A DNA stretch of 64,000 nt from Thermoplasmatota archaeon (GTDB taxonomy: Archaea; Thermoplasmatota; SW-10-69-26; JACQPN01; JAJPHT01). The first letter of the stretch is position 1; each line of letters starts with the position of its first letter. Shown in pieces: positions 3,256 through 56,800 of the stretch. Below the pieces are notes generated by a model. The model had not been told where the DNA came from. It was given only the letters and a program-made list of their open reading frames with translations, and made no database searches. Location of the stretch: NCBI GenBank assembly GCA_035540375.1, contig DATLGO010000048.1, positions 27,772 to 91,771 on the forward strand, read 5' to 3'. The translations under genes and the position numbers were made by a program.

Positions 3256-3290
3256 CACCATTGAGTTCGGGGCCTTCAGCGGGCACTCCG

Positions 3291-3318
3291 TCGCACAGCG
3301 CTGCGGCGCTGTGCGACT
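3291..3318 (+). terminator. perfect 12-bp stem hairpin (gtcgcacagcgc-tgcg-gcgctgtgcgac) just after the mdh stop
   Basis: The inverted repeat was read directly from the sequence. It is intergenic between convergent genes. Confidence 0.45.
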
Positions 3319-3433
3319 GCGTGCCAAGGGAGGGTGCTATCCGCCCCCTCCCTTGACCCTCCCGTGGACCAGGGGGCTCGCGCCCCCTGGACCCCCGACC
3401 CAAACCCGCGTTTTCCTGACGAACGAGGCCCGG

Positions 3434-3522
3434 GTTTTGCGGCCCCCCTTCCGCCATGCTCGGGTTCTACGGCCCCCTTCCGCCATGCTCGGGTTCTGTG
3501 GCCCCCTTCTACGCCTGCTCGA
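3434..3522. repeat. three contiguous ~29-nt tandem repeats (gggttctNNggccccc(c)ttccgccatgctc), the third degenerate
   Basis: Read directly from the sequence. It lies in the convergent intergenic region between mdh and the e2b2-family gene. Confidence 0.6.
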
Positions 3523-3624: not shown

Positions 3625-4533
3625 TCAGAGTTCCCAGGTCTTCCGCGCGAGGTCGCCGACGGTCGCGGGCGCGGCGGGGCCGAGCTCCGTGAGCGTCTCC
3701 GCGATCCAGGCCGCGGGGGTGACGTCGAAGACGGGGTTCAGGATGCGCACGCCCGGCGCGAGTTCGCCCTCCCGCGCGACCTCCGCGCTTTCGCGCTCCT
3801 CGATCGGGACGTCGCGCCCCGCGCGCGAGGCGAGGTCGACCTTGTACGTCTCCGCGCAGACGCGGAAGGGCTTCCCGTGCGCGCGGGCCGCGAGGGCGAC
3901 CGCGCTCGTGCCGACCTTGTTCACGACGTCGCCGTTCATCGCGACGGTGTCCGCGCCCACGAACACGCCGTCGAGCGTCGGCATGAGGTGCAAGACCGCG
4001 CTGTCGACGACGTACGTCGTCGCGATGCCCGCCTCGACAAGCTCCTTCGTCGTGAGGAGCCCCTGCCGCCACGGCCGCGTCTCGGTCGCGAAGACCTCGA
4101 ACGCGAGGCCCCGCCGCGCGCCTTCGCGGAAGACCGCGAGGGCGGCCTGGCTGTTGCAGTGCGTGAGGTAGCGACCGCCCTCGCGCAGCCGGTCGGCGCC
4201 GTGCGCGCCGATTGCGGCGACGGCCTTCTCGCTGCGGTCCGAGAATTCCTTCGCGGCCACGCGGAGCGCCTGCCGGGCCGCCTCCTCGCCGCGCGGGAGC
4301 GCGCCGCGCGCGCGACGGACCACGAACGCGACGGCATTCATGAGGGACACGGCCGAGGGGCGGGTCGCCATGAGCGTCGCGGCGGCGCGCTCGAGTTCGC
4401 GCGCGAAGTTCTCGCCGCGGAAATCGGATTCCCACACGGCGAGGGCTTCGGCGGCGTAGCGGCCGATCTTCCCCGCGCCGCGCACGCGCATGCTGCGGAT
4501 GTCTTCGGCCATGGAGGCGAGCGAACGGTCCAT
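3625..4533 (-). CDS. ribose-1,5-bisphosphate isomerase (eIF-2B alpha/beta/delta-like, e2b2 family)
   Basis: MDRSLASMAEDIRSMRVRGAGKIGRYAAEAL...THCNSQAALAVF...VGADTVAMNGDVVNKVGT is the eIF2B-like isomerase family. The start is set at the internal Met; the upstream Pro/Gly-rich extension of the track ORF is a translated simple repeat. Confidence 0.8.
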   Translation of the reverse strand: MDRSLASMAEDIRSMRVRGAGKIGRYAAEALAVWESDFRGENFARELERAAATLMATRPSAVSLMNAVAFVVRRARGALPRGEEAARQALRVAAKEFSDRSEKAVAAIGAHGADRLREGGRYLTHCNSQAALAVFREGARRGLAFEVFATETRPWRQGLLTTKELVEAGIATTYVVDSAVLHLMPTLDGVFVGADTVAMNGDVVNKVGTSAVALAARAHGKPFRVCAETYKVDLASRAGRDVPIEERESAEVAREGELAPGVRILNPVFDVTPAAWIAETLTELGPAAPATVGDLARKTWEL

Positions 4534-4589
4534 GATGCGGAATCCTTCGGCGTCCGCGCCGAATAACCTTGCGGCTTCGTCCGCGCGGA

Positions 4590-4800
4590 TCGGTCCCGGA
4601 CCCGGACCCGGGCCCGACGCCCGGCGCCCGGACCCGACGCCCGAGCCCGGTCCCGACGCCCGACACCCGACGCCCGGACCCGGTCCCGAATCCCGGACCC
4701 GGTCCCGAATCCCGGCGCCCGGCTCCCGGGCCCGGTTCCCGAATCCCGGGCCCGGCCCCCGGCGCCCGGCACCTGACGCCCGGTCCCGGGACCCGATCCC
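4590..4800. repeat. about 210 bp of low-complexity cccgg(a/c)/cccgacg hexamer-like repeats
   Basis: Runs of ggacccggacccgggcccgacgcccggcgcccggacccgacgcccgagcccggtcccgacgcc... lie directly upstream of the e2b2-family start. Confidence 0.6.
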
Positions 4801-19285: not shown

Positions 19286-19657
19286 TTGCGGCCGCCTCGT
19301 CGCTGGGCTTTTCTGGCCGTCCGCCTTCCCGCCTGCGTGAAGCGCGTCCTTGCCTACGTTCCCGACCTGCTCTTCCGATCGCGCGTGCGCGGCACGGCCT
19401 CGGCCGCGGGCGTCGAGGTCGTGTTCGCGTCGAACGGGCCGGACCTCGCCGCGAAGGCGGCCTCGGGCGGCTTCGACCTCGCGCTCGTGGACCTCCACGC
19501 GCCCGGCGCCCTCGCGCATCTGCCGCGCGGCGTGCGCGTCGTCGGCTTCCACAGCCACGTGGACGTCGCGACGCGACGCGCGGCCGAGGCTGCGGGCGCG
19601 GAAGCGTACACGAACTCCGCCTTCGTCGAGGCCCTGCCGAAGATCCTTCAGGCGTGA
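19286..19657 (+). CDS. stand-alone CheY-like receiver (REC) domain protein, atypical
   Basis: RVLAYVPDLL...GVEVVFASNGPDLAAKAASGGFDLALVDLHAPGALAHL...VRVVGFHSHVD...AGAEAYTNSAFVEALPKIL follows REC topology. The phospho-acceptor Asp context (LALVDL) is present, but the N-terminal acidic pair and the conserved Lys are degenerate. The likely start is GTG near 19340. Confidence 0.4.
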   Translation: MRPPRRWAFLAVRLPACVKRVLAYVPDLLFRSRVRGTASAAGVEVVFASNGPDLAAKAASGGFDLALVDLHAPGALAHLPRGVRVVGFHSHVDVATRRAAEAAGAEAYTNSAFVEALPKILQA

Positions 19658-19724
19658 GCGCGGAAACCCCGTTCGGGGGCCGTCAATCCTTTATGGGGCG
19701 GCGCGCTCAGGAGGAGCGGTCATC

Positions 19725-21167
19725 ATGCCCAAGGTCCGACTCCCCACGCCCCTTCGCCCGTACGCCGGCCACCAGGCCGTCGTCGAGGTCGAAGGCGCGA
19801 ACGTCGGCGAGGTCCTCCGCCGCCTCGTCGCGAAGCACGAAGGCCTGCGCGGGCACCTCTTCGACGAGCGTGGACGGCTGCGTCCGTTCGTGAACGTGTA
19901 CGTCAACCAGGAGGACGTGCGCACGCGCCAGAACGACGCGACCCCCGTCGCCGACGGGGACGTCGTCATGATCGTGCCCGCGGTCGCGGGCGGCGCAGTC
20001 CCCGCGAAGGGCGCGGGCGGCGTCGGGATCCTCGGCCGCGACGAGACGGCCTACTACGCGCGTCACCTCATCCTCCCCGAGGTCGGCCTCAAGGGACAGG
20101 AGAAGCTCAAGCGCGCGAAGGTGCTCCTCGTCGGCACGGGCGGCCTCGGCGCGCCGGCCGCGCTCTACCTCGCGGCCGCGGGCGTGGGCCGCATCGGCCT
20201 CGTCGACTTCGACCGCGTCGAGGCCTCGAACCTGCACCGGCAGGTGCTCTTCTCGGCCTCGGACGTCGGACGACCGAAGGCGGAGGCGGCGGCCGCGCGC
20301 CTGCGCTCGCTCAACCCCCACATCGAGGTGGACGTCCACGACACGACCTTCACGAGCGCGAACGCGCTCGACCTCCTCGCCGGCTACGACATCCTCGTGG
20401 ACGGCACGGACAATTTCCCGACGCGCTACCTCGCGAACGATGCCGCGGTCCTCTCGGGCAAGCCGAACGTCTACGCGAGCATCTTCCGCTTCGAAGGCCA
20501 GGCGTCCGTGTTCGCGACGCGAGACGGACCCTGCTACCGGTGCCTCTACCCCGCGCCGCCGCCGCCCGGCCTCGTGCCGAGCTGCGCCGAAGGCGGCGTC
20601 CTCGGTCTCCTCCCCGGCGTCATGGGCACGATCCAGGGCGTCGAGACCGTGAAGCAGATCCTCGGCATCGGCGAGTCGCTCGCGGGGCGCCTCCTGCTCT
20701 TCGACGCGCTCGGGATGGAATTCACGACGCTCTCGCTGCGCAAGAACCCCGACTGCCCCGCGTGCGGCGCGAAGCCCACGCTCACGGGCCTCATCGACTA
20801 CGAGGAATTCTGCGGCGTCCGCGCCCACGAGGACGCGATTCCCTCGGGCGTGCCCGCGATCGCGCCGCGCGACGTCCACGCGCGCCGCGAGGCGAAGGCC
20901 GACCTCACGCTCGTGGACGTCCGCGAGCCGCACGAATGGGAGATCGGGCGCATCGCGGGCGCGATGCACGTGCCGCTCGGCGAGGTCGTCGCCCGCGCTT
21001 CCGAGATCCCGCAGACGGGCGAGGTCGTGGTCTACTGCCGCTCGGGCGCGCGCAGCGCCCGCGCGACGGAGACGCTGCGGGGCCTCGGCTTCCGCAACGT
21101 CAAGAACCTCGAAGGCGGCATCCTCGCCTGGGCCCGCGACGTCGACCCCACCGTCGCGACGATCTGA
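19725..21167 (+). CDS. fused MoaD/ThiS-like Ubl (ending in GG) + MoeB/ThiF-type E1 adenylyltransferase + C-terminal rhodanese domain
   Basis: Residues 1-90 (MPKVRLPTPLRPYAGHQAVVEVEGANVGEVLRRL...VNVYVNQEDVRTRQNDATPVADGDVVMIVPAVAGG) are the MoaD/SAMP beta-grasp with a terminal Gly-Gly. They continue in frame into the E1 (KVLLVGTGGLGAPAALYLAAAGVGRIGLVDFDRVEASNLHRQ, CxxC...CxxC) and a rhodanese domain (VVVYCRSGARSA active-site Cys). A GGAGG RBS precedes the ATG. Confidence 0.85.
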   Translation: MPKVRLPTPLRPYAGHQAVVEVEGANVGEVLRRLVAKHEGLRGHLFDERGRLRPFVNVYVNQEDVRTRQNDATPVADGDVVMIVPAVAGGAVPAKGAGGVGILGRDETAYYARHLILPEVGLKGQEKLKRAKVLLVGTGGLGAPAALYLAAAGVGRIGLVDFDRVEASNLHRQVLFSASDVGRPKAEAAAARLRSLNPHIEVDVHDTTFTSANALDLLAGYDILVDGTDNFPTRYLANDAAVLSGKPNVYASIFRFEGQASVFATRDGPCYRCLYPAPPPPGLVPSCAEGGVLGLLPGVMGTIQGVETVKQILGIGESLAGRLLLFDALGMEFTTLSLRKNPDCPACGAKPTLTGLIDYEEFCGVRAHEDAIPSGVPAIAPRDVHARREAKADLTLVDVREPHEWEIGRIAGAMHVPLGEVVARASEIPQTGEVVVYCRSGARSARATETLRGLGFRNVKNLEGGILAWARDVDPTVATI

Positions 21168-24356: not shown

Positions 24357-25628
24357 ATGGCCGAGAAGCCGCACATGAACATCGTGTTCATCGGGCACGT
24401 CGACGCCGGCAAGTCCACGACTGTCGGCCGCGTCCTGCTCGACACGGGCACCATCGAAGCGCACATCATCGAGAAGCTCCGCAAGGAAGCGGAGGAGAAG
24501 GGCAAGGGCGGGTTCGAATTCGCCTACGTCATGGACAACCTCAAGGAGGAGCGCGAGCGCGGCGTCACCATCGACATCGCGCACAAGAAGTTCGTGACGA
24601 ACAAGTACTACTTCACGATCATCGACGCCCCCGGCCACCGCGACTTCGTCAAGAACATGATCACGGGCGCGTCGCAGGCTGACGCGGCCGTGCTCGTCAT
24701 CTCCGCAGTCTCGGGCATCGAGGCCCAGACGAAGGAGCACATCTTCCTCGCGAGGACCCTCGGCGTCGAGCAGCTCATCGTGTACGTCAACAAGATGGAC
24801 GCGCTGCAGCCCGCCTTCGACCAGAAGAAGTTCGACGCGCTCAAGGAGCAGATCGAGACGCTCATCCGGACGGTCGGCTACAAGAAGGAGAACGTTCCGA
24901 TCATCCCCGGCTCCTCGTACAAGGGCATCAACATCACGAAGGCCCCGGCCGAGATGGGCTGGTTCAAGGGCCCGACGCTCCTCGACGCCATGAACGGCCT
25001 CAAGGAGCCCTCGAAGCCCACGAACCTCCCGCTCCGCCTCCCGGTGCAGGACGTCTACTCGATCACGGGTATCGGCACGGTGCCGGTCGGCCGCGTCGAG
25101 ACGGGCATCCTCAAGATCGGCGACACCATCATCTTCAACCCCTCGGGCGCGACGGGTGAGGTCAAGTCGATCGAGATGCACCACGAGCAGCACCAGCAGG
25201 CCGTCCCCGGCGACAACGTCGGCTTCAACGTCCGCGGCATCGACAAGAAGTCGATCCGCCGCGGCGACGTCGCCGGCAAGGCGGACAACCCCCCGAAGGT
25301 CGCGAAGGCCTTCGTCGCCCAGATCGCCGTCCTGCAGCACCCCTCGGTCATCGCCGCCGGCTACACGCCCGTGTTCCACATCCACACGGCCCAGCTCGCG
25401 TGCACGTTCGAGGAGCTCCAGAAGAAGATGGACCCGAAGACGGGCCAGGTCAAGGAGGAGAACCCCCAGTTCCTCAAGACCGGCGACATCGCGATCGTGA
25501 AGATCCGGCCCTCGCGCCCCCTCGCGATCGAGCGCTCCAAGGACATCCCCCACATGTCCCGCTTCGCGGTCCGCGACATGGGCACGACGGTCGCCGCCGG
25601 CCTGTGCCTGGACCTCGAAGAGCGCTGA
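24357..25628 (+). CDS. tuf: translation elongation factor aEF-1 alpha
   Basis: [27 protein letters not shown]...[20 protein letters not shown], archaeal-type. A GGAGG RBS lies 7 nt upstream. Confidence 0.97.
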
Positions 25629-25660
25629 GCGCAGCGAAGCGCGAAGCGAGGTCCAGGCGA

Positions 25661-25682
25661 GCACGAACCCGCAGGTTCGTGC
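25661..25682 (+). terminator. hairpin gcacgaac-ccgcag-gttcgtgc downstream of tuf, flanked by a 25-nt direct repeat of the tuf 3' end
   Basis: The inverted repeat was read from the sequence. The same core recurs at about 49605. Confidence 0.4.
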
Positions 25683-25816
25683 GGTGCCTCGACCTCGAAG
25701 AGCGCTGAACGCTCGATTCGCCGGCCTCGGCCGGGACCCGCGCCGCAGGGGATCTGCGGCAGTCCTTTCTTTTCACCCTCGATGGACGAGCCGCGGCCGC
25801 GTCGCGTCAGCGGAGC

Positions 25817-27109
25817 CTACAGGGTGTCCGCGAGCCAGGCGAAACACGCGGGCTCCGGCACGCCCCGGGCAATGGGTGGCGCAAGAAGCAGCGACGGGCA
25901 CCCCGTCGCCTCGCGCTCGAGCGTCACATCGTACACGCCTTCGGTCTCCCCGCGCCAGAGCGTGATCATGAAGTTCGCACCCGCTTCCCCGAGGAGGCGC
26001 CAGCGGACGGCGCAGGGATCGTCGCTCGAGTATCCGACCACGAGGGCGCCTTCGGATTCGACGTTCGCGGCGATCGGTCGGCAATCCCGCGTCCGGATCG
26101 TGAGGATCGCGTGCTCGCCCGCGTCCAGCGTCGCCACGTAGGCGTCCTCGTGGTCGACGTCGTCGATGCATCCCGTCGTCCCGCCGAAGCCGAGGGGGTG
26201 GACGCGGCCGTAGCGGGACGTGTCCCATGACGTGCCGCCATCGCCGATCCCGAGGCAGGCCCGGGGCGCGAGGGGATGGAGCGCGATCGCGAAGCGATAC
26301 GCCGTGCCGATCTCGTCGGTGGTCCGCGCCGTAACATGGTATGTGCCATGGACCCGGCCGAGGTCGATCTCGTGCGGGCCGCAACCGTAGACGAAGATTC
26401 CCGTGTAGGTCTCGAGGCCGGCGTGGAAGCGCACGCGGCAATCGTCGCTCTCGAACCGCACGACGAGGCGGTGATCCTTGGGAACATCGATCCGGTAATC
26501 GTCCTCGTCGTCGTAGCGGTCGAGGCAACCCGTGAACGCACCGGCCGCGAGCCACGGACCGGTATAGGAGGCCGCGTCCTGACCCGTACCCCCGTCGTCC
26601 TGGGGGGTCGGGCAGAATCGGGGCTCCGGCGAGTCCTTGGCAAGGGTCAACCGGTAGGCGCCGTTCCCTTCGATGCGCCACAGGTGGACCGTGTGCGTGC
26701 CGGTGCCCTTCGCGACGTAGGCCACCCGCAGGGCCCCGCATCCGTCGCCGCCATTCTGGTCTTCGGCCGCATATGCGTTCGATATCCACACGAGGAATCG
26801 GCCGCACCCGGTCCGGTCGACGGTGAGGTCGTAGCGGTGGCCCGCCACCGCCCCGAACGTGTAGAAATCGGACGCAGATCCCGCGAACGGTGGTGATTCC
26901 TCGTTGCCGATGCAGCCCTCGTAGGTGCCTTCCGCGATGGCCACAGGGCTCGACTCGGTCGCGTCGCGACCGCTCCCGGCGTCGTCGGAGGCGCTCTCGA
27001 ACGGCGCGCACCAGGGCGAGGCCGCGACGGGACCGGCGGTTCCCGCGGGGGCCGCAAAAAGGAACGCGACGGAGACCAGGAAGGCGAGGCTTCGGAAGAC
27101 GGCCGTCAC
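25817..27109 (-). CDS. secreted protein with 3-4 tandem PPC-like (pre-peptidase C-terminal-type) beta-sandwich repeats
   Basis: Signal peptide MTAVFRSLAFLVSVAFLFAAPAGTAG. Repeated modules containing D-x-Y-x-F/I...G-x-x-Y/H-x-L/V-V...C (for example DFYTFGAVAGHRYDLTVDRTGC and DDYRIDVPKDHRLVVRFESDDC). Confidence 0.55.
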   Translation of the reverse strand: MTAVFRSLAFLVSVAFLFAAPAGTAGPVAASPWCAPFESASDDAGSGRDATESSPVAIAEGTYEGCIGNEESPPFAGSASDFYTFGAVAGHRYDLTVDRTGCGRFLVWISNAYAAEDQNGGDGCGALRVAYVAKGTGTHTVHLWRIEGNGAYRLTLAKDSPEPRFCPTPQDDGGTGQDAASYTGPWLAAGAFTGCLDRYDDEDDYRIDVPKDHRLVVRFESDDCRVRFHAGLETYTGIFVYGCGPHEIDLGRVHGTYHVTARTTDEIGTAYRFAIALHPLAPRACLGIGDGGTSWDTSRYGRVHPLGFGGTTGCIDDVDHEDAYVATLDAGEHAILTIRTRDCRPIAANVESEGALVVGYSSDDPCAVRWRLLGEAGANFMITLWRGETEGVYDVTLEREATGCPSLLLAPPIARGVPEPACFAWLADTL

Positions 27110-27497
27110 GGGACCTCAGCCCGGGGCCGTCGACATGAACTTTGTCGTGTCCTCGCGCGCGTGACAGCCGTCGCGCCCGCCCTGCGGCCGCGCGCCCTTC
27201 GCGGGCGCGGCCACACCTGTTCGAGGAGCGTGGGGACCACGAACACGACCGTGTCGCGCGCGATCTTCCCGGCCTCGTTCGTCGTGAGGACGTCCGCGAC
27301 GCGCTCGTCGACGTCCTCCCCGTCGCCTCGATACGGCCCGCCTCGGTCTCGATGGGGCCCGTGGGCCGGCCCTTGAAACGGAAGAGCACAGGGGGTGGCC
27401 TCGGGAGCCGACGACGCGCTCCTCGGCCCACCGCACGTTCTCGCCTTCCCCGCACGCGCCTCGCGCGGGCGGCGAGGATGAGGGTCGTGGCCGGCCT

Positions 27498-29222
27498 TCA
27501 GAGGCTCCGGATCACGTCGCAGTCGAACACCGTGTCGACCACGATTCCGTCCGGACTGTTGTATTTCACGCCCACGATCTCGGTGCACGCGCGGACGCCG
27601 GATTCGAGGGTTCCGGTCGGGAACACGAGGTGGCGGGCCGACGTGTAGACCCCCACGGTGCCCTGCGACGGGCTCGCCGTGCTCGCGAGGTGGATCGTGA
27701 TGGGATCCGTCCCCGAATAGAGGATGCGACGGGGCTCGCCGACGCAGTTGTCCAGGGTGGGGTTCGCCTTGCACGCCGCGCCGAGAACCGCCGGCGGATC
27801 CACGAGGAGGACGCCGGGCGTGGGCCAGACGGTGAGCGGCGTGATCGTGAGGGTGAGGTTCGAGTTGTGGCCCCCTTGGGGCGTCGAGATGCCGATCGGG
27901 TTGAACTCGCCCGCGGAATCATCGTACTGATCGGGAAGCGGTCGGCTCCCGCCCTCGTAGGGGTCGGCGGCCGCGATGCCGATGAAGCCGTCGCCATTGT
28001 AGTCGCGCCAGATGCCCGTGCGCACCTCGAACGCGAGGATGCCGGGCGCGGACGCGCCGTCGGGGGTGCCGACGCGCTCCATGCTCGAAGCGCCGAGGCC
28101 GGTGCGGGGCAGGAGGTCGAGCCAGCCGCGGGCTTCGGCCGCGAACTCGGCGTGGCGGCCGGCGGCGCTGTTGCCGCTCCCGAGGTCCGTTTCGCGCTCG
28201 TAGCGGGGGAAGAGGGCTCCCATGGCGGGCCCGAGGGTCGCGCCGAGGGGCGTGTCGCCGAGCGGGACGGGTCCGGGCCGGCACCGATTGGGGCAAAGCC
28301 CGAGGCTCGGGCTGCTCACGGCGTTCGTGAACGGCGCCGCGACGGCCCCGTACAGGGCCGCGACGGGGCCGGGGGCCACCGCCGAGTACAGGTCCACGTC
28401 GACGAGCGTGGTGTCGCGCGGGATGAAGGGGAAGCGGGGATCCTCGCCGGGGAGGAGAATGATGTCGTTCGCGGTGACGACCGTGATCCGCTGGAGGAGC
28501 GACCCCTCCGTGAAGACCATCACGTCCTGGTTCGAGCCGGTGTCCCAGAAAGCGTTCTGTCCGATGAGCTTGTAGGTGAAGTCCGGCTGGGTCTCGCGCG
28601 GACGCGAGTAGGACGCCAGGTTGGGGTGGCTGCCGGGTTCCACGAAGCTCGCGAGGGCGGCGCCCACGACGCCGCTCGCGGTCGCGCTCTTGATGATGAC
28701 CCATTCGTTGCCGTCCCCGCCGGACCAGGGGGCCCCCACGGAGCGGGACGACGTCTGCGAGGATCGAATGACGTTGTCCTCGTTCGCGTCGTTCCACAAG
28801 CCGAACCAGGCGTGGAACTTCGCCGCGCCCGGCAGAATCGTGGGGGGAAGGCCCAGGCGGCGCGTGAGGCTGTCGCCGCGGTGCGCGTCCTTGTACGCCC
28901 CGTCCACCGACGTCGCCGTATTCGGGGGCCCGACGAGCGCGGGATCCGCGTAGCGCAGCGCCTCGAAGTAGCCGAAGCTCGCATGGTAGCTGTCCAGGAT
29001 GCGCACGCCGACCGGCGGGTGCGAAAGCTGGGTCGGGGTCAGAGGGCAGCTCTCGCTGCCACTCGTATGCACCGCCTTCACGCAGTTCGACTGTCCGAGG
29101 TCGGCTTCGAACGATGGAGGCTCGGCGAGCTCGACGGACACGTCCGTCGCAGCTTCGAGGCGGTAGGGGTCCTGCGCGAGGACCGACGGGACGACCAGGG
29201 ACAGGACGAGAAGCAGCGCCAT
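27498..29222 (-). CDS. secreted hypothetical protein (574 aa)
   Basis: Internal Met start with signal peptide MALLLVLSLVVPSVLAQ. The upstream part of the track ORF overlaps the divergent hydrolase gene and is rejected. Confidence 0.5.
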   Translation of the reverse strand: MALLLVLSLVVPSVLAQDPYRLEAATDVSVELAEPPSFEADLGQSNCVKAVHTSGSESCPLTPTQLSHPPVGVRILDSYHASFGYFEALRYADPALVGPPNTATSVDGAYKDAHRGDSLTRRLGLPPTILPGAAKFHAWFGLWNDANEDNVIRSSQTSSRSVGAPWSGGDGNEWVIIKSATASGVVGAALASFVEPGSHPNLASYSRPRETQPDFTYKLIGQNAFWDTGSNQDVMVFTEGSLLQRITVVTANDIILLPGEDPRFPFIPRDTTLVDVDLYSAVAPGPVAALYGAVAAPFTNAVSSPSLGLCPNRCRPGPVPLGDTPLGATLGPAMGALFPRYERETDLGSGNSAAGRHAEFAAEARGWLDLLPRTGLGASSMERVGTPDGASAPGILAFEVRTGIWRDYNGDGFIGIAAADPYEGGSRPLPDQYDDSAGEFNPIGISTPQGGHNSNLTLTITPLTVWPTPGVLLVDPPAVLGAACKANPTLDNCVGEPRRILYSGTDPITIHLASTASPSQGTVGVYTSARHLVFPTGTLESGVRACTEIVGVKYNSPDGIVVDTVFDCDVIRSL

Positions 29223-29346
29223 CGATGCGATACGCACAGGCAGGCCTCGGTCCCGAGGTCGGCCAACGGGAGATATAGATACCGGCCCCACGTCGGGGCG
29301 AGGTCGCCCACAATCTACTTCTACGCCCGAGCGGGATCGGCGCGGG

Positions 29347-31404
29347 ATGACCCGCGCCATCGTCCTCGCCCTTCTCCTCGCGCTTCCCGCCGCCCTCGCC
29401 GGGTGCTTCGCGCCCGCCGATGAGGACCTGCGCCCCGGAAGCGTCGACCTGCTCGAGGGACTCGTCGTCGAGGGCGCGAAGGCGACACGTCTCGAAAACG
29501 GCGACCTGAACCTCGTGTGGGAGGGCGTGATCGAGGGCAAGAGCGTCCCCGTCGTGTTCCCGGTCCCGGAGGGCGTCACGTACGTCGAGGCGACCGCGAC
29601 GGTTCCTGCCGGACGCTCGCTCGACCTGCGCGTCGTCGGCAACTCGACGGGGCGGCTCCTTTGCAACACCCACAAGACGGCGAGCTTCCTCGTCGACGCG
29701 AAGGGCCGCGTCTCGTGCTCGGGCCTCGGCGTCGCGTCGCCGGGCGAGGACTGGAAGGCGATGCTCGGCGCGTCGAATTCGCTCTCGGCGCCCGCACCGT
29801 TCGTGCTCTCGGTGAACCTCAGCACCGCGCCCCTCGACGGGTCCGCCGCGCTCATCCGCTGGGACCGGCTCTCGCGCCCGATCCACAAGGCGCTCGAGAC
29901 GGAGACGGTGAAGGTGCCCGCAAGCGTCGACGGGGCGAAGCTCCACGTCGAGGTCACGCGCCCCGCTATCGAGGAGAAGGTTCCGACCATCCTCGTGTCG
30001 AGCCCGTACAACTACAATGCGCGCGCGGCGGGCAACCGCCCGTCGGATTCGCTCATCCTCGCGATGGTGCCGCGCGGGTATGCCGTCGTCGTCGCGGACG
30101 TGCGCGGCTTCGGCAACTCGGAAGGGTGCGTCGAGGTATGGGGTCCGAAGGAGCAGAAGGACCAGTACGACCTCGTGGAGTGGGTCGCCGCGCAGCCGTG
30201 GAGCGACGGCAAGGTCGCGTTCTACGGGCAGAGCTACGTGGCGACGACCCCCGTCGAGGCGGCCGTCCAGCGCCCGCCCCACCTCACGACGATCGCGATC
30301 GTCGCGCCCGTCATGAACACGTGGGCCGACTGGCACTTCGGCGGCGTCCCGAACGGCGAAAACGTCGGGTCTCCGCGCAGCTACCAGCAGGGCGGCACGG
30401 AGACGACGCCCGAGGACGGGAACCCGCTCGCGACGGTCGCGCACACGGCGAACGGCTTCTGCGACGTCACGCTCGCGGCGCGCGCGAACGACCCGCGCGC
30501 GCTTTACGACGCGTTCTACAAGGAGCGCAACTTCACGGCGCGCGCGAAGGAGATCAACGTCCCCGTGTTCTACACGCAGGGCTTCTGGGACGAGAACGTG
30601 AAGGGCGAGATGATCGTCGGCTTCTTCGACGCGCTCGACGTCCCGAAGCGCGCCTTCTACGGCCCCTGGCACCACCAGCACGCGGTGCGCGCGGACATGG
30701 AGCTCACGCTGCGCGCCTGGTTCGACCACTGGCTCAAGGGCATCGAGACGGGCGTCATGGACGGACCCCTCGTCGAGGTCCGCACGCCGCAGGGCCTCGC
30801 GCGCGAGGCCGAATCGTGGCCGCCGGCCCACGCGACGCCGCGCGCGTTCCACCTCGCGTCCGGGAAGCTCCAGGACGCGTCCGGGGCGGGCGAATCCACG
30901 TATCTCGCCTTCCCCGCGAAGACGGTCCTCGCGAACCTCCTCCCGATGGCGCCGACGCCGACCGCGGTCCGCTTCGCGTCGGAGCCGCTCGCCGAGCCTC
31001 TCTACGTGTCGGGCAAGGGCGTGTTCCGCTTCAACGCGAAGCTCGCGGGCGCGGACAACTCCTACTTCGCGGCGTACCTCCGCGACGTCGCGCCCGACGG
31101 AACCTCGACGCTCCTCACGTTCGGGTGGCTGAACGCGGCCCATCGCTTCGGGCACGAGCGGTACGAGCCGGTGCCGCCGAACGCCCCCGTCGCGTACGCG
31201 CTTTCGCTCCTTCCCGCGGACCACGTCGTCCTCGCGGGCCACAAGCTCGTCCTCGAAGTCCGCTCGGCGGACCTCGCGGACTGGTCGCAGGCCGGCGGCG
31301 CGACGGAACCCGGTCTCGTGACGCTCGACCACGCGCGAAGCGCGCTCGAGCTGCCGACGCTCCCGCTCGAATCGCTCGCGCCCGCGCCGCGGTCGGCCGC
31401 GTGA
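29347..31404 (+). CDS. CocE/NonD-family alpha/beta hydrolase (X-Pro dipeptidyl-peptidase S15-like), lipoprotein-type signal
   Basis: MTRAIVLALLLALPAALAGC (lipobox-like). ...VADVRGFGNSEGCVEVWGPKEQKDQYDLVEWVAAQPWSDGKVAFYGQSYVATT matches the S15 family nucleophile region, with a C-terminal beta-sandwich. Confidence 0.8.
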   Translation: MTRAIVLALLLALPAALAGCFAPADEDLRPGSVDLLEGLVVEGAKATRLENGDLNLVWEGVIEGKSVPVVFPVPEGVTYVEATATVPAGRSLDLRVVGNSTGRLLCNTHKTASFLVDAKGRVSCSGLGVASPGEDWKAMLGASNSLSAPAPFVLSVNLSTAPLDGSAALIRWDRLSRPIHKALETETVKVPASVDGAKLHVEVTRPAIEEKVPTILVSSPYNYNARAAGNRPSDSLILAMVPRGYAVVVADVRGFGNSEGCVEVWGPKEQKDQYDLVEWVAAQPWSDGKVAFYGQSYVATTPVEAAVQRPPHLTTIAIVAPVMNTWADWHFGGVPNGENVGSPRSYQQGGTETTPEDGNPLATVAHTANGFCDVTLAARANDPRALYDAFYKERNFTARAKEINVPVFYTQGFWDENVKGEMIVGFFDALDVPKRAFYGPWHHQHAVRADMELTLRAWFDHWLKGIETGVMDGPLVEVRTPQGLAREAESWPPAHATPRAFHLASGKLQDASGAGESTYLAFPAKTVLANLLPMAPTPTAVRFASEPLAEPLYVSGKGVFRFNAKLAGADNSYFAAYLRDVAPDGTSTLLTFGWLNAAHRFGHERYEPVPPNAPVAYALSLLPADHVVLAGHKLVLEVRSADLADWSQAGGATEPGLVTLDHARSALELPTLPLESLAPAPRSAA

Positions 31405-31722
31405 TCACGCAAGCGGCGTCGGCGCGAATCCGGCCGCAAGGCGCGCGAGGAGGTCGCGCGCCGCGTCCCACTCCTCGCGTCCCTCGGACGTGGCCTCGAA
31501 GCCGCGCGCCGTTTCGATGGCGCGCGCGTCCCGCAGGAGCCGGTCGAGGCTGTCCTCGGCGACGTCGCGGTCGAGCGCGGGGTCGAACGCGGAAAGGCGC
31601 GCAAGGAGGTCCTCCCGGCGTCGCGGGGCCGCCGCGACCTCTGAAAGGATGAGCGACTCAGCGACCGTCCGTCGGGCGCGGTCCAGGTACTTTTCTCCCA
31701 AGGTGCCCAAGGTCCCTTTCAC
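31405..31722 (-). CDS. hypothetical protein
   Basis: 105-aa ORF with an ATG start and genome-typical codon use. No family recognised. Confidence 0.3.
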   Translation of the reverse strand: MKGTLGTLGEKYLDRARRTVAESLILSEVAAAPRRREDLLARLSAFDPALDRDVAEDSLDRLLRDARAIETARGFEATSEGREEWDAARDLLARLAAGFAPTPLA

Positions 31723-31866
31723 CCGACGTCGCAGGCGGGCGGGCGAGCAAGAACGTGGCGCCTTGGAGAAGGGCTGTACAACAATCCTTGACCGGATTCC
31801 CGCGCGAGCCCGGGCGGGCTCCTATCGAGGCGAATCTTCATCATCGAGGCCGCGCGTGGGCGCGGC

Positions 31867-32394
31867 ATGCGGTTCTCGTTCGAGGCGGCGGGGTTCGACC
31901 TCGCGCCGGGCGCCCTTTTCGGCGGCGAGATCCTCGCGGAGCCCGGCCCCGGCGGCCTGCGCGCGGAGCCCGCGGGAACCCCGGACCGCCTCCACCTCGT
32001 GGACGGCCGCATCCGCGCGACGGGCCGCGTGCTCTACGCGGCCCGGGAGACGTGGACGCGGAGCGACCTCGGCGCCGAGCCGCGGCGCCGCGTCGTCGCC
32101 TCGCTCTTCGCGGGAGGGCTCACGGTCCTCGTCATCGCGGATGCCGGCGACGAGCCCCGCGAGGGCGTCCCCGCGACGGTCGAGGGCCCGTTCCGCATGG
32201 TCCTCGCCCCGGGGGACGAGCGCGCTCCGCCCCGGCCGCGCGCGGACAGCCTCGTCACGTGCCCGCTGACCTTGCGCACGGCGCACGTCGCGCCGGGAAG
32301 GACGCCGGTCGTCGAGGCCGACGTCGTCCGCGTGTGGCCGGTGGAGGTCCTCATGCCGGGGGAAGGCGGGCGCGCCGAGCGCCTGCGCCTGTGA
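31867..32394 (+). CDS. hypothetical protein
   Basis: 175-aa ORF with very high GC3 in this frame. No family recognised. Confidence 0.35.
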   Translation: MRFSFEAAGFDLAPGALFGGEILAEPGPGGLRAEPAGTPDRLHLVDGRIRATGRVLYAARETWTRSDLGAEPRRRVVASLFAGGLTVLVIADAGDEPREGVPATVEGPFRMVLAPGDERAPPRPRADSLVTCPLTLRTAHVAPGRTPVVEADVVRVWPVEVLMPGEGGRAERLRL

Positions 32395-32512: not shown

Positions 32513-32824
32513 ATGGCTCACACGGCCCGCATCTCCCTTGCCGGCACCGACCCCAAGAAGGTCGACAGCGTCTGCATCCAGATCAAGACCATCGCCGAGC
32601 GCACGGGCGTCCGCATGTCCGGCCCCGTCCCGCTCCCGACGAAGCGCCTCGTCGTCCCCGCCCGCAAGTCGCCCGACGGCGAGGGCTCGGAGACGTACGA
32701 CCACTGGCAGCTGCGCGTCCACAAGCGCCTCATCGACATCGACGCCGACGAGCGCGCCCTCCGCCAGCTCATGCGCATCCAGGTCCCGGACTCGGTCAAC
32801 ATCGAGATCGTCCTCCGCACGTGA
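32513..32824 (+). CDS. rpsJ: 30S ribosomal protein S10 (uS10)
   Basis: [76 protein letters not shown], archaeal uS10. Confidence 0.95.
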
Positions 32825-49625: not shown

Positions 49626-49712
49626 AGCGCGAAGGCGGCGCCGCAGCGCCGCCAAGCCGCCGCCGAGCCCACAGGCTCGGCGAGCGCCGACGCTGAGGAC
49701 GGATCGCCGAAC

Positions 49713-52667: not shown

Positions 52668-53890
52668 CTGCTGCCTTTGCCGTAGTTCCGGATCCTTGTC
52701 AGGAGATCCTTGAGGGTATCGTCATCGCTTGCGCCGTTTTCGCCGCGCACGACGCGACGCAACCGGTCGTCGGTCGCGAGGACCGCGAGCGTTTCGGGGG
52801 CGGGCGACTCCTCGCGCACGCCGTGGACGGCCCGCACGCGCTCGCGCGCGAGGCGCGTAATGCGCTCGATCGGGCTCGCCATGGGGGAGGTCCGGACGCG
52901 GGCGAGGCCGCTCCGGTGGTGCGTGAGCCGCTCCTCGGGTTTGACGAGGGCGAGGAGCACCGCGATCGCGAGGCCGAGGGAACCGAGGAAGATCCACTGC
53001 CAGAACGGGTCCTTCGTCGGCACGACGAGCGACGCGAGGCCCGCCGCGGCGAGCCGGGCCTGGGGCGCGGGCGCGTGACGCGATTCGTCGAAGAGGATGG
53101 TTCCGGCGTTCGACCCGCGGGCGAGCGCGTCGGGGAGGGCGAGGGCAAACTTGCGGTTGTCGCTCCCTGCGGCGTCGAGCATCTCGTTCGTGAAGAGGGC
53201 GGGGTCCGCGATGAACATGACGGTGCCGCGGCCGTGCGCGACGACGACCATCTGGGGGAAGGGACCCTTCGTGTCCGTGTCGTCCTTGCGGCGGTTCCCG
53301 TCGTTGTCGAGGTACGAGTCCGGCGAGCTCGTCGCGACGATCCGGGCCGAGGGGTTCGCGCCGGAAAGAAGGCTCGGGCTCACGGTGAGGGCCGTGGGCT
53401 CGTTGAGAAGGAGGTCGAAGGTCAGGTCCTCGCCCTTGCTCGTCGTGAGGAGCGCGCGGGCGCGGGCGAGCGAGACGTTCTTCTGGAAGTTGGAGTCGAG
53501 GAGCGGCACCTTGTCGAAGGTGACGCCGAACTTGACGGCGAGCGTGTTCGCGAAGCCGAAGTCGTCCGCGACCACGAGGACGCCGCCGCGCGTCACGAAG
53601 TCGTCGAACGCCTCGATCTCGGAGGCCGAGTACGGCCGGCTCACGCCGACCGCGAACACGATGTGGGCCGCGGGATCGGAGACGCCGCGCAGCACGAGCG
53701 GCGTCGAGGCGATGGTGTCCGTGTTGTACCCGAGGCCCCCCGCGAGGCTCGCGCGGTACGCGCCGAGATCCGCGCGGCCCGAGCTGTAGGATCCGAGCTC
53801 CGGGGGCGGGGAATAGAGGATCGCGACGACGGCGCCCCCGACAATGAGGGCGGCAAGGAGGACGGCCGCGAGGCCGAGCGCGCGCTTCAC
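52664..53890 (-). CDS. DUF4350-like protein (N-terminal and C-terminal TM helices flanking a large extracytoplasmic domain)
   Basis: The GTG start (VKRALGLAAVLLAALIVGG) overlaps the stop of the giant upstream gene (GTGA). C-terminal TM FWQWIFLGSLGLAIAVLLALV. The stop overlaps the MoxR start (GTGA). The 5' 2.4 kb of the track ORF 52664..56311 overlaps the giant gene out of frame and is rejected. Confidence 0.6.
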   Translation of the reverse strand: MKRALGLAAVLLAALIVGGAVVAILYSPPPELGSYSSGRADLGAYRASLAGGLGYNTDTIASTPLVLRGVSDPAAHIVFAVGVSRPYSASEIEAFDDFVTRGGVLVVADDFGFANTLAVKFGVTFDKVPLLDSNFQKNVSLARARALLTTSKGEDLTFDLLLNEPTALTVSPSLLSGANPSARIVATSSPDSYLDNDGNRRKDDTDTKGPFPQMVVVAHGRGTVMFIADPALFTNEMLDAAGSDNRKFALALPDALARGSNAGTILFDESRHAPAPQARLAAAGLASLVVPTKDPFWQWIFLGSLGLAIAVLLALVKPEERLTHHRSGLARVRTSPMASPIERITRLARERVRAVHGVREESPAPETLAVLATDDRLRRVVRGENGASDDDTLKDLLTRIRNYGKGSR

Positions 53891-56800
53891 GCGCCCGCCT
53901 CCTTCGCGCCGCCCTTCGTGCGCCGGATGCGCGCGAGGTCGGCGTTGAGCGCGGCGAGCGCGCTCAGGGCGCGGTCGCGCTCGGCGGGCCCGACGCCGTG
54001 GGCGGAGTACCGCGCCTCCTCGAAGAGCGAGACGAGCGCGTCGAGCGGCGCCGCGCGCACCGGGAGAGCCGCCTTGACGGCGGCGCCGAACTCCTGCGCC
54101 GTGACGTCCGGCGTCGTCGTGTACCCGAATTTCACGAGGTAGTCGCGCAGGCGCCGGTAGGCCATGAGAATGGTGGCCGAGTACTCGTCGCCCGCGACGA
54201 GCGCGGCCTGCGTGTCGAGGAGGATGCGCTCGGCCTCGGTGACGCGGCTCTTCCTGTACCAGGCGACGAGGAGGCTCACGATGGCCGCGACCGCGAGAGC
54301 GCCGATGAGCGCGAGGACCCACGAGTTGCCGGCGCCGCCGAAGGCGCCCGTGGAGATCTGGATGCGGGTCGCCTCGTTCGTGGGCAGCAGGTCGTCGGTC
54401 CCGCCGAAGCGCACGTCGAGGTCCGAGGCGCCCGCTCCGGTGACCTTCCCCGGGAAGGAGGCGTGGCCGGTCGCGTTCGTCTTCAGCGTGAACGGGTAGT
54501 ACGAGCCGCTGAAGTGGACGCGGAGCACGGCGTTCGGGACGCCGAGCCCCTCGTCGTCGAGGAGCTGGACGGTGCCCGTGAAGCTGTCGCCCACCGCGAG
54601 CTTGCGGGGGACCACGACCTCGAGCCGGGTCATGCTGATGACCTCGACGAGCGCGATCGCCGAGGCGGGCGTGTGGCTCTGGTCGCCCGCGTAACGGACC
54701 TCGATCGGGACCCGGGCGCGCTCGAAGTCGGCCGGGATGAGGGCCGCGACGTGGAAGCTCCCGTTCGGGGCCGTGCTCGCGCGCGCGAGGAAGGAGCCGT
54801 TGAAGATGAGCTCCACGGAGGCGCCGGGGACGCCGAGGCCGTTCTCCTGCTTGAGGCGGCCGTCGAACTCGAAGACCTGGCCGCGCACGGCGCGCGGGGG
54901 CGGGTGGATCTCGAGCACGGTGCGCGAGAGCAGGCGCAGCGACCCGGTCGCCCCCGAGGGCGCGTAGAGCGTGGAGCCCTCGTAGCGCGCCTCGATCGGG
55001 TAGACCTTCGCGGCGACCCCGGAGGTGTCGAAGCCGGCCTCGGCCTCGCCGCGGAAGTCGGTCGGAGTGACCGTCACGGGCGATCCGAGGAAGGTGACGC
55101 CGACGATCTCGCCGCCGATGGGCCGGCCGGCGTCGTCGTGGAGCGTGAAGTTGTACACGACCTCGCCGATCGCGGCGGTGAGGTGGGGCATGCGAATCGA
55201 GGTCGCGCTCAGGACGCGCACCGTCGAGACGAGCTCCGGCGCCCCGCGCAGGAGGCCGTCCGCGCTCCCGTCGTAGCGGGCGCGCGCGAGGACGGGGCCG
55301 AGGCTCGCGTTCGCGGGGAGCGTGAGGGGCGCGCGGAATCCTCCGGTCGCGTTCGTCACGAAGACGCCGAGATGGCGCTCGCCGAGCGTCACGTTCACGC
55401 TTTCGCCGCGGACGGGCCGCTCGTAGGCGTCGACGACGACCCCGACGAGCGCCTGCGGAACGCCGCGCACGAGGGCCTTCGTCTCGAGGCTCACGCGCGT
55501 CGCGGACGTCGCCGGAACGCGGATCGAGGTCGAGGCGGGCCCGTAGAAGTCGGATCCCGCGAATCCGAGCGCGAACGTCACGCTCCCGACCTTGGGATAG
55601 ACGTTCCTCGGGATGGTGAGCGAGAAGGTTCCCGTCGCGTTGTCCACGCGCGCCTGGGTCGCGTAACCCTCCGTCGAGATGCGGATGACGAGCGCGTCGC
55701 GCGAGGTGGGGTCGCGCGCGGGGCCGCCGCCCACGTCCCGGAGGGTCCCCTGGATGACCGCGTCCTTCGCGATGTCGAGCGCCGTGACGCGGATGAGGTC
55801 GGCCCCGAGGGGCTGGAGGATCTGCGCCTCGAGGACGGGCCGGGCCCGGATGGTGACGAAGCTGAGCTTCTGCGAGGAGGCCTGGTAGAGGTCGGATCCC
55901 TCGAAGACGAGGGAAACGGGCTGGTTGCCAGGACTCGAGTCCTCGGGGATGAGGATCTTGAAGGACGCGACACCCTGCGCGTTTGTAACCGCCGTGTGGA
56001 GCGCTCCGAGGAAATGGAGACCGACGGTCTCGTTGCCGACGACCGCCCCCCGGAAGTTCCTGAGGGTCGCCTCGGCGACGAGATCGCCTCCCGCAACCGC
56101 GATGAGACGATCGTTCAGCACGCGGCCGGAGATCTTCGTGGGGAACGCGATCGCGACGCGGGCCTTCCCCGTCGAGGCGCCGTAGAGCTCCGATGGCGTG
56201 GTCTCGAGCGGGAGGTCGAAGTAGCCCGGCTCCTGGGCGGCGCCGGTCGGGAAGCTGATGTTGAACCGCCCCTCCGCGTCCGTGGTCGCGCTCTTGCGGA
56301 CGCCGTTCCACGTCATGAGCACCGGCCTCCGCGGCGCGGGGTCACCCGACCCGTCGAGGAGGCGCGCGGTGCCCCCGATCTCGCCGTTCGGCGTCGTGCG
56401 GAGCGTGGGTCCGGCGTCGAACGTGGTCGGCGTGCGCAGGCGGAGCGTCTGTGTTGCCACCACGGGCGTCTCGAACGTGCCGCGGATGCCCCGGGCCCGG
56501 TAGACGGTGGAGCCCGCGCCGTCGACGACGTCGGCGGCGGTCCACTCCGCGTGGGCGCCGATGCCGTAGCTCCAGAGAAGGACGCGGTAGCTCGTGATCG
56601 CTGGATCGAGCGCGACGGAGGCCGTGTCGAGGGTCCAGCTCACCGTGGATCCCGGAGCGTGGACCTTGCCGAAGAGCACCACCGGGCCGCAGCTCGAGGG
56701 AATGGTGACGGATTGCGCGCGCACGAGCGAAAGCGTGAGCGAGAAGCGGCCGGCGGCGTCCGTGAACGCCACGCCCGCGACGCGGGACGGGTCGCTGCGG

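Follow-up and report, generated by a model that had tools for sequence, protein, structure and literature searches.

Integrated genetic elements of archaea often have the 3'-distal part of a protein-coding gene as their target, with the open reading frame (ORF) being rebuilt, and thaumarchaeal casposons target the gene of elongation factor EF-2 (PMC6563490). Tandem integration in archaea has been described as well (PMC8371274), and the attachment (att) sites reported for crenarchaea measure 29-69 bp. Here we analyze the 3' end of tuf, the gene of archaeal translation elongation factor EF-1alpha, which is duplicated in a 64-kb stretch of a Thermoplasmatota genome (the window; base composition about 72% G+C; all coordinates are given in window numbering). 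With about even confidence we regard this repeat as a recombination scar, in that foreign DNA carrying its own tuf end would have entered the resident gene by recombination, with displacement of the old end. EF-1alpha as a reported integration target did not turn up in our literature searches.

Structures of comparable anatomy are known from other settings. Cis-mobilisable or decayed integrative elements (CIMEs), as well as tandem accretion at one att site, are known for the integrative and conjugative elements (ICEs) of streptococci. In homology-facilitated illegitimate recombination, known from naturally transformable bacteria, the incoming DNA is anchored at a single conserved gene while its other end is joined illegitimately. 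Inverted-triplication and quasi-palindrome template-switch rearrangements are recognized by a direct-inverted-direct order of segments with a palindromic centre.

Judged from its sequence, the ORF at 24357-25628 (+) represents 'tuf' in its archaeal EF-1alpha form. Its product of 423 amino acids (aa) ends in ...GLCLDLEER-stop and contains the Pfam domains GTP_EFTU, GTP_EFTU_D2, GTP_EFTU_D3 and GTP-eEF1A_C; the G+C content at third codon positions (GC3) is 0.97. Six public contigs encode an identical EF-1alpha protein, which the source annotation assigns to 'Candidatus Thermoplasmatota archaeon'. The tuf-terminal 25-mer GTGCCTGGACCTCGAAGAGCGCTGA (25604-25628), which includes the stop codon of the ORF, recurs 80 nucleotides (nt) downstream at 25684-25708 with one mismatch (24/25 nt). 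This duplication, described in an earlier note on the window, is borne out by the sequence and by a shuffling control, in which 0/100 dinucleotide-preserving shuffles gave two 25-mer matches at <=3 mismatches. The similarity extends 4 nt further to a total of 29 nt (27/29 identical), with copy 1 at 25604-25632 (+) and copy 2, the proposed displaced former gene end, at 25684-25712 (+). Copy 2 encodes CLDLEER-stop in its own frame, which is offset by +2 from tuf, and the sole mismatch within the 25-mer, CTG to CTC, is synonymous, so that both copies encode the same residues. A third copy of the 25-mer is not present within the window. Four conspecific contigs, from two ENA assemblies (ERZ27256751 and ERZ27256749) and two JGI metagenomes (3300028006 and 3300028007), are 100% identical over the repeat region. 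As these originate from four samples, an error confined to one assembly is unlikely, and so is an assembly artefact as source of the duplication.

The copies are separated by a 55-nt spacer (25629-25683 (+)), which is not repeated after copy 2, where the sequence is unrelated to it. Neither the remainder of the window nor the contigs of single-copy relatives contain this spacer. In line with this, Tandem Repeats Finder (TRF) detects no array of 80-nt period in the window and no tandem array of repeat plus spacer in the two related contigs L091 and L096 described below. A simple tandem duplication is thereby ruled out, and the structure is, to judge by its layout, an insertion flanked by a repeat.

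By inverted-repeat analysis we found an imperfect inverted copy of the gene end (X', 25638-25658), missed in the earlier note, which is 81% complementary to copy 1 and 76% complementary to copy 2, whereas the direct copies are 96% identical. In the minimum free energy fold X' pairs with copy 1 and, spanning 25638-25659 (+), makes up the 3' arm of a long hairpin (25605-25659) with a 13-bp outer and a 5-bp inner stem, which encloses the tuf stop codon in its apical loop. At the sole position where copy 2 differs, X' pairs with the G of copy 1. Next to copy 2 lies the junction hairpin GCACGAACC-CGCA-GGTTCGTGC (25661-25682 (+)), which ends 1 nt upstream of that copy. The hairpin had been proposed before with a shorter stem and is real, yet a perfect 9-bp stem closed by a CGCA loop describes it better; the full palindrome reads GCACGAACCCGCAGGTTCGTGC and its 16-nt core CGAACCCGCAGGTTCG. 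Overall, the 191-nt region folds at -97.6 kcal/mol as compared to -84.5 kcal/mol in shuffles (z = -2.7). Rfam and tRNA scans of the window gave no matches, and accordingly no Rfam family matches the repeat/hairpin region. Other perfect GC-rich hairpins with a CGCA loop occur at 3290-3317 (-; 12-bp stem) and 49634-49653 (+; 8-bp stem), and their stems are unrelated to the junction palindrome.

Copy 2 retains features of a gene end. It carries its own stop-codon hairpin, GAGCG-CTGAA-CGCTC (25700-25714 (+)), with the stop in the loop, and is followed by the probable tuf terminator, the hairpin GCCGCAGG-GGA-TCTGCGGC and the T-rich run CCTTTCTTTTC (25742-25775 (+)), identified by terminator scan and folding. 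This is the sole terminator-like site in the fold and in a scan of 25300-26100, and it lies after copy 2, not after copy 1, a position that fits copy 2 as the original gene end. Transcription of tuf thus most likely ends at 25742-25775, as predicted from this site. In relatives, too, tuf is followed by a hairpin and a TTTTCAT-type run. A further motif appears, by eye, to recur downstream of the tuf terminators of the clade; it reads GAGCGCGAGCsCTsTCCCGCGTCGC in L096 (742-766, 939-963) and GAGCCGCGGCCGCGTCGCG in the window (25787-25808).

To place the structure in a wider context, we compared fetched contigs of relatives carrying tuf (designated by L-numbers). The best EF-1alpha identity among GTDB representative genomes is 71%, while a large protein collection yielded a clade with 79-87% identity to the window protein. 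Among 93 loci from about 85 archaeal genomes, the last 24 nt of tuf are repeated within 500 nt only in the species of the window and in L091. A metagenome scan with a clade-specific tuf-end pattern added L096 as carrier, and a separate peptide scan added L092. Hence, of about 17 clade relatives with a readable tuf 3' end, only these three possess a second one. A single tuf end is found in L085, L087/L088, L089, L090, L095, L097, L098, L099, L100, L101, L102, L103 and L122. In these relatives the stop codon is followed, mostly within tens of bases, by a GC hairpin and a TTTTCAT-like run. The unoccupied site is therefore seen in thirteen clade relatives, a comparison at the family rather than the genus level. 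A conserved 3'-untranslated region (3'-UTR) feature or terminator, which the earlier note had named as an outcome that would speak against a recombination scar, is ruled out, as most relatives lack the duplication both among the 93 loci and among the clade loci added later.

Identities over the C-terminal 200 aa of EF-1alpha show that the carriers do not form sister lineages. L096 shares 95-96% with the single-copy relatives L087, L097, L098, L100 and L101, yet the window and L096 share only 88% in this comparison, and for L091 the identity to the other members of the clade is 78-88%. The carriers also differ in the extent of the duplication and in the DNA that it encloses. The distal copy starts 25 nt before the stop in the window, about 30 nt in L091, 60 nt in L096 and 84 nt in L092, and the DNA between copies measures 55 nt in the window and about 130 nt in L096, whereas L091 has two such stretches of about 70 nt each and L092 one of about 780 nt. 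The inter-copy DNA, up to a whole gene in L092, hence varies with the carrier, which answers the second doubt raised in the earlier note, namely that the repeat might not be associated with variable DNA at all.

In L091 (ENA ERZ27254861 k141_382234, 3264-3515; protein 84% identical) three tuf ends follow one another about 100 nt apart; the first and the second read LDIEERTGA-stop, the third LDIEERTST-stop. Folding, which covered the first two units, places the stop of each in a hairpin loop, and the stems differ with complementarity kept. Each of the two spacers holds a different 9-10-bp hairpin. The array may be longer, the contig ending after the third copy. L091 further contains the small ATG-initiated ORFs MAKHRQRARAEGERTLGCLDIEERTGA and MGRHAPGRVRCPVQEALDIEERTST, each preceded by CGACGAGATGG and each with a different hairpin. 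L096, a 160-kb contig, has a 60-nt second copy 189 nt downstream, which encodes 19 residues followed by a stop, and each of its copies is followed by its own terminator. In L092 (ENA ERZ1758434 NM_forest_Scaff0625138, 3757-4696) an 84-nt second copy lies about 780 nt downstream; between the copies are a terminator and a gene for a 182-aa protein, which has a signal peptide as well as a C-terminal anchor and gave no match in a Pfam search.

A direct connection between two of the carriers is provided by the junction hairpin. The distal copy of L096 is preceded, 2 nt upstream, by the hairpin GGCCGAACC-CGCA-GGTTCGGCC. It shares with the window hairpin the identical 16-nt core, in both cases located 1-2 nt before the distal copy, whereas the two outer hairpin pairs differ on both sides between the window and L096 with pairing kept, a covariation seen in two species only. 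Elsewhere in the 1.46 Mb of archaeal loci that were fetched, the core is absent. In a comparison of the window insert with those of L096 and L091, only the hairpin (window/L096) is significantly similar, and homology of the whole 55-nt insert with the L096 and L091 inserts was therefore rejected.

The way in which the copies differ provides information on their origin. All codon differences are synonymous between the copies of the window (1/1), between those of L096 (5/5, P ~1e-3) and between copies 1 and 2 of L091 (5/5, P ~4e-4). Copy 3 of L091 shows 3 synonymous and 2 non-synonymous differences, and the distal copy of L092 shows 11 synonymous and 3 non-synonymous ones. Thus, the copies differ like alleles of a functional gene, and the non-synonymous minority would represent the decay expected after displacement. 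For L092 the foreign copy can be named. Its tuf has a GC3 of 1.0 over 360 consecutive codons, and 7 of the 12 A/T-ending codons of the gene fall into the last 21 codons, which correspond to the duplicated segment (Fisher p = 1.2e-6). These last ~21 codons have a GC3 of about 0.7, compared to 0.93 in the distal copy, and the identity to the near relative L087 falls from 97% to 84% across the duplicated segment. Because of this codon composition and the drop in identity, we take the proximal copy of L092 to be foreign and the distal copy to be native, which makes L092 the clearest case of gene-end replacement with cargo.

Taken together, the patchy distribution over non-sister carriers, the variable repeats and spacers and the composition of L092 favor recombination into the tuf 3' end over a conserved terminator. 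For the window we infer the polarity of the event (copy 1 incoming, copy 2 native), the foreign origin of the DNA and the enzymology as follows. DNA from the tuf locus of a related archaeon, or a small element bearing a tuf end, would have entered the EF-1alpha gene by recombination at its 3' end. The incoming end, i.e. copy 1 together with its matched arm X' that folds over the stop, would now finish tuf, while the former end (copy 2) would have been displaced 80 nt downstream, keeping its own stop-codon hairpin and T-run terminator. Of the inserted DNA 55 nt would remain, with the 9-bp palindromic hairpin as the right edge that marks the junction with the displaced end. Two enzymatic routes are conceivable. 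A site-specific integrase may have acted, followed by near-total loss of the element. Alternatively, recombination may have been anchored by homology with an illegitimate right-hand joint, possibly set by the stable hairpin, an option in keeping with boundaries that vary and with a proximal copy that resembles an allele. Spread of the repeat-spacer-repeat unit between relatives by homologous recombination would account for the shared palindrome.

Several observations weigh against this reading. Neither between nor next to the copies did Pfam searches and inspection of the neighbouring ORFs reveal a recombinase gene or a recognizable element body, and the 55 nt between the window copies hold no element genes. 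Three independent lineages keep only 45-130 nt between copies, which is odd for decayed large elements. The left boundary of the repeat varies by species, which argues against one site-specific integrase with a fixed crossover. Likewise, no donor locus or free element with the hairpin beside a tuf fragment was found in viral, plasmid or phage collections: in IMG/VR neither the repeat nor the hairpin 22-mer nor the tuf-end pattern of the clade has a match, the 18 matches to the 16-mer core all lie in unrelated contexts, and BLAST against PLSDB plasmids and INPHARED phages returned nothing relevant. The closest database relative has 87% EF-1alpha identity, which leaves no true empty-site comparison within the genus. 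The single mismatch of the window cannot tell the foreign from the native copy, and sliding-window identity along the window's tuf reveals no recombination breakpoint, in contrast to the tuf of L092, which does show one. Finally, the flank after the proximal copy of L096 aligns with the flank of L087, so that the polarity may differ between cases. Of the site-specific recombination scar suggested in the earlier note, the recombination pattern thus finds support in the relatives, while the integrase, the element body and the fixed boundary that would go with it were not found; the same holds for the integrase or transposase, or free hairpin-bearing element, that it had proposed to look for.

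Compared to the known systems, the structure is formally like an attL-remnant-attR arrangement, an analogy that extends to several details. As in archaeal attL/attR pairs, the target gene's 3' end, with its stop, is directly repeated and the ORF is rebuilt with the protein unchanged; related genomes show the empty site, the target is an elongation factor gene, and in L092 the gene-attached copy is foreign with a cargo gene between the repeats. The repeat lengths of 25-84 nt overlap the crenarchaeal att range. Different from those pairs, there is no integrase, Cas1 or element body here and the repeats are a mere 55 nt apart, the repeat boundary changes from species to species, and a conserved palindrome sits at the junction. 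With CIMEs the locus shares att-like repeats that flank a remnant devoid of a recombinase, and the three tuf ends of L091 look as if they derived from successive events; known CIMEs, however, are kilobases long with recognizable element genes, whereas the remnants here measure 45-130 nt. Homology-facilitated illegitimate recombination would account for a conserved gene beside variable DNA, for the varying repeat and insert lengths and for the foreign-allele proximal copy of L092. However, it is not known from this group of archaea, and alone it leaves the presence of the same joint palindrome in two species unexplained.

Among the alternatives, a local replication or repair error that involves no foreign DNA survives best, although we consider it unlikely. 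Here, a template switch or fold-back would have generated a miniature duplication with inverted triplication (copy 1, X', palindrome, copy 2), which was then inherited vertically and lost in places by recombination between the direct repeats. The observed order of direct copy, inverted copy, palindrome and direct copy is what two template switches are expected to produce, as in the template-switch rearrangements mentioned above, and an imperfect palindrome of 69 nt, with the CGCA loop at its centre, is made up by X', hairpin and copy 2. A loose resemblance exists between the right hairpin arm and the tuf codons located about 60-72 nt ahead of the stop (in an alignment by eye only), and easy loss through the direct repeats would allow for the patchy distribution. 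Yet the inverted copy, at 76-81% complementarity, is far more diverged than the direct copies with their 96% identity. The identical 16-nt core in the non-sister L096 would demand an ancient origin with random decay of the distal copies, whereas the differences are synonymous in 11/11 codons (window, L096 and copy 2 of L091), which is not random decay. The cross-species identity of the hairpin and the allele-like differences hence misfit a purely local event. In addition, the foreign GC3 of the L092 proximal copy cannot arise locally, and a long inverted copy is not apparent in L096, judged by eye and with no repeat search run there.

Somewhat less probable, in our view, is that the structure is a functional RNA element of the 3'-UTR. 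Its hairpins would stabilize the 3' end, and ribosomes at the stop codon could shift the pairing of X' and the folding downstream. In line with this notion, the region folds better than its shuffles, X' is complementary to both copies, the junction hairpin keeps its pairing through two double changes, and the sequence is identical in the four contigs. Furthermore, stop-codon hairpins recur in about 12 of the 21 folded tuf ends of the clade (16 resident gene ends and 5 distal copies). In these hairpins the 5' arm or the loop is made up by the last codons (GAG CGC) together with the stop, whereas the 3' arm varies between species in sequence and spacing with complementarity kept. Sites are located in the window (25605-25659, 25700-25714), in L091 (3275-3305), in L101, L103, L098 and L092, and in copy 2 of L096. 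From the modelled folds, the stop-codon hairpin of the clade looks selected, independent of the duplication. What speaks against a role of the duplication itself is that it is missing, together with the junction hairpin, from most relatives, that no Rfam family matches, and that there is nothing downstream to regulate, as the terminator is followed by a convergent gene. Moreover, the full terminator between the L096 copies implies that these are seldom on one transcript. A conserved regulatory RNA was rejected on similar grounds, covariation being confined to the junction hairpin in two species. A bulge-helix-bulge intron was discarded as well, with no such motif apparent in the fold, although no dedicated test was run.

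An active miniature hairpin element or cassette, mobilized in trans by an integrase or an HUH-type enzyme and duplicating the tuf end on insertion, is in our estimation quite improbable. It would explain why the same palindrome occurs at the same junction in two non-sister species, why small inserts are found in three lineages and why three tuf ends stand in tandem in L091. In another reading the palindrome consists of two 7-bp arms that flank an 8-bp spacer, a layout which resembles the core sites of tyrosine recombinases. On the other hand, the insert has no terminal inverted repeats, its ends sharing <=4-5 nt in inverted orientation (by eye), and the duplication (25 nt in the window, 60-84 nt in relatives, i.e. 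25-84 nt overall) is far longer and more variable than known target-site duplications. These properties speak against a classical miniature inverted-repeat transposable element with target-site duplication. Further copies of the palindrome or the insert are absent from the 64-kb window and from the 1.46 Mb of related loci, the inserts of window, L096 and L091 are not significantly similar outside the hairpin, and synonymous differences would not arise from a duplication made at insertion. The miniature inserted element that the earlier note had offered as second option is accordingly not supported. Casposons carry Cas1 and PolB genes and terminal inverted repeats, and they produce target duplications of 14-15 bp. 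No such genes lie beside tuf, and both repeat length and end anatomy differ, so that a casposon is rejected, too.

A more speculative proposal, which we put forward as a long shot, combines parts of these ideas. Among uncultivated soil Thermoplasmatota a very small palindrome-bearing module might insert at the EF-1alpha 3' end, each insertion replacing the gene end and stacking the old ones, as in L091. It could rely on a hairpin-recognizing recombinase or spread by homologous recombination alone, with the conserved tuf ends on its two sides as homing arms, and the hairpin with 9-bp stem and CGCA loop would be its functional core.

That the distal copies are translated, as C-termini of small ORFs mimicking the EF-1alpha tail or through readthrough or frameshifting, is highly improbable: the two ATG small ORFs of L091 (27 and 25 aa) do end in LDIEERTGA and LDIEERTST, their lengths differ by a multiple of three, translation of the hairpin in the frame of the distal copy gives RTRRF in window and L096, and the differences between copies are synonymous, but the only in-frame start of the window is a GTG yielding a 9-aa peptide, the reading frame is not offset from tuf in a consistent way (window +2, L091 +2 then 0, L096 0), no Shine-Dalgarno-like motif is visible by eye, no peptide conservation extends beyond the tuf-derived residues, and the L092 distal copy shows non-synonymous decay. 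Readthrough, frameshifting or ribosome bypass of the kind known from T4 gene 60 was discarded in particular, as the frame relation differs by species and the product would be the same peptide.

Apart from the repeat itself, the earlier note had placed it at the left boundary of about 7 kb of non-syntenic genes. Between the tuf terminator and rpsJ (ribosomal protein S10, Pfam Ribosomal_S10; 32513-32824 (+)), the ancestral downstream neighbour of tuf, lies a five-ORF stretch of about 6.6 kb (25817-32394), which is outside the repeat pair. It encodes products of 430 aa (-), 579 aa (-), 685 aa (+), 105 aa (-) and 175 aa (+). The 685-aa ORF is an S15 X-Pro dipeptidyl-peptidase, the 430- and 579-aa ORFs have no Pfam match, and the N-termini of all three resemble signal peptides. 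In L094 rpsJ follows immediately after tuf, and in L103 the gap between them is about 660 nt. The gene order in L103 is tuf, rpsJ, a 240-aa ORF and an amidohydrolase, matching the rpsJ, 246-aa ORF and amidohydrolase of the window. Because the 6.9 kb that separate tuf and rpsJ in the window are absent in L103 and L094, they represent an insertion into the ancestral tuf-rpsJ linkage. In this respect the claim holds, yet the repeat does not bracket the region. The 6.9 kb lie to the right of copy 2 and the terminator, no copy of the repeat is found near rpsJ or at their right edge, and local alignment of the last 120 nt of tuf with the rest of the window gave scores no better than shuffles. Since the repeat pair thus does not delimit the 6.9 kb, any link between the two is circumstantial. 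A tblastx comparison of the 6.9 kb with the tuf-downstream regions of relatives was uninformative, returning about 9,000 low-complexity matches in all frames.

Some further observations were made along the way. The window contains an ORF at 19350-21167 (+) that encodes a ThiS-ThiF-Rhodanese domain fusion, 605 aa long from the first start and 480 aa in the public gene call. Two very large ORFs of high GC3 are found at 53887-60480 (-; 2198 aa) and 60462-63998 (-; at least 1179 aa), and they run off the end of the window. In the ENA collection, P0011 (527 aa, 2.5-kb contig) is a homologue of EF-1alpha in which about 100 aa, spanning domain 2, are duplicated internally, probably as an assembly or strain-collapse artefact. 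As this internal duplication is unrelated to the 3'-end repeat, P0011 was rejected as a further carrier.

In the window, the structure leaves the EF-1alpha protein unchanged and is today probably inert, apart from lengthening and structuring the tuf 3'-UTR. The palindrome together with a displaced tuf end constitutes a compact marker for tracing such events in metagenomes. If the duplication is indeed a recombination scar, the end of the EF-1alpha gene would be a recurrent entry point for foreign DNA in an uncultivated clade of Thermoplasmatota, and EF-1alpha would join EF-2 and tRNA genes as archaeal gene-end targets. This would also help to explain the broken ancient tuf-rpsJ linkage and the presence of variable genes for secreted proteins beside a highly conserved gene.

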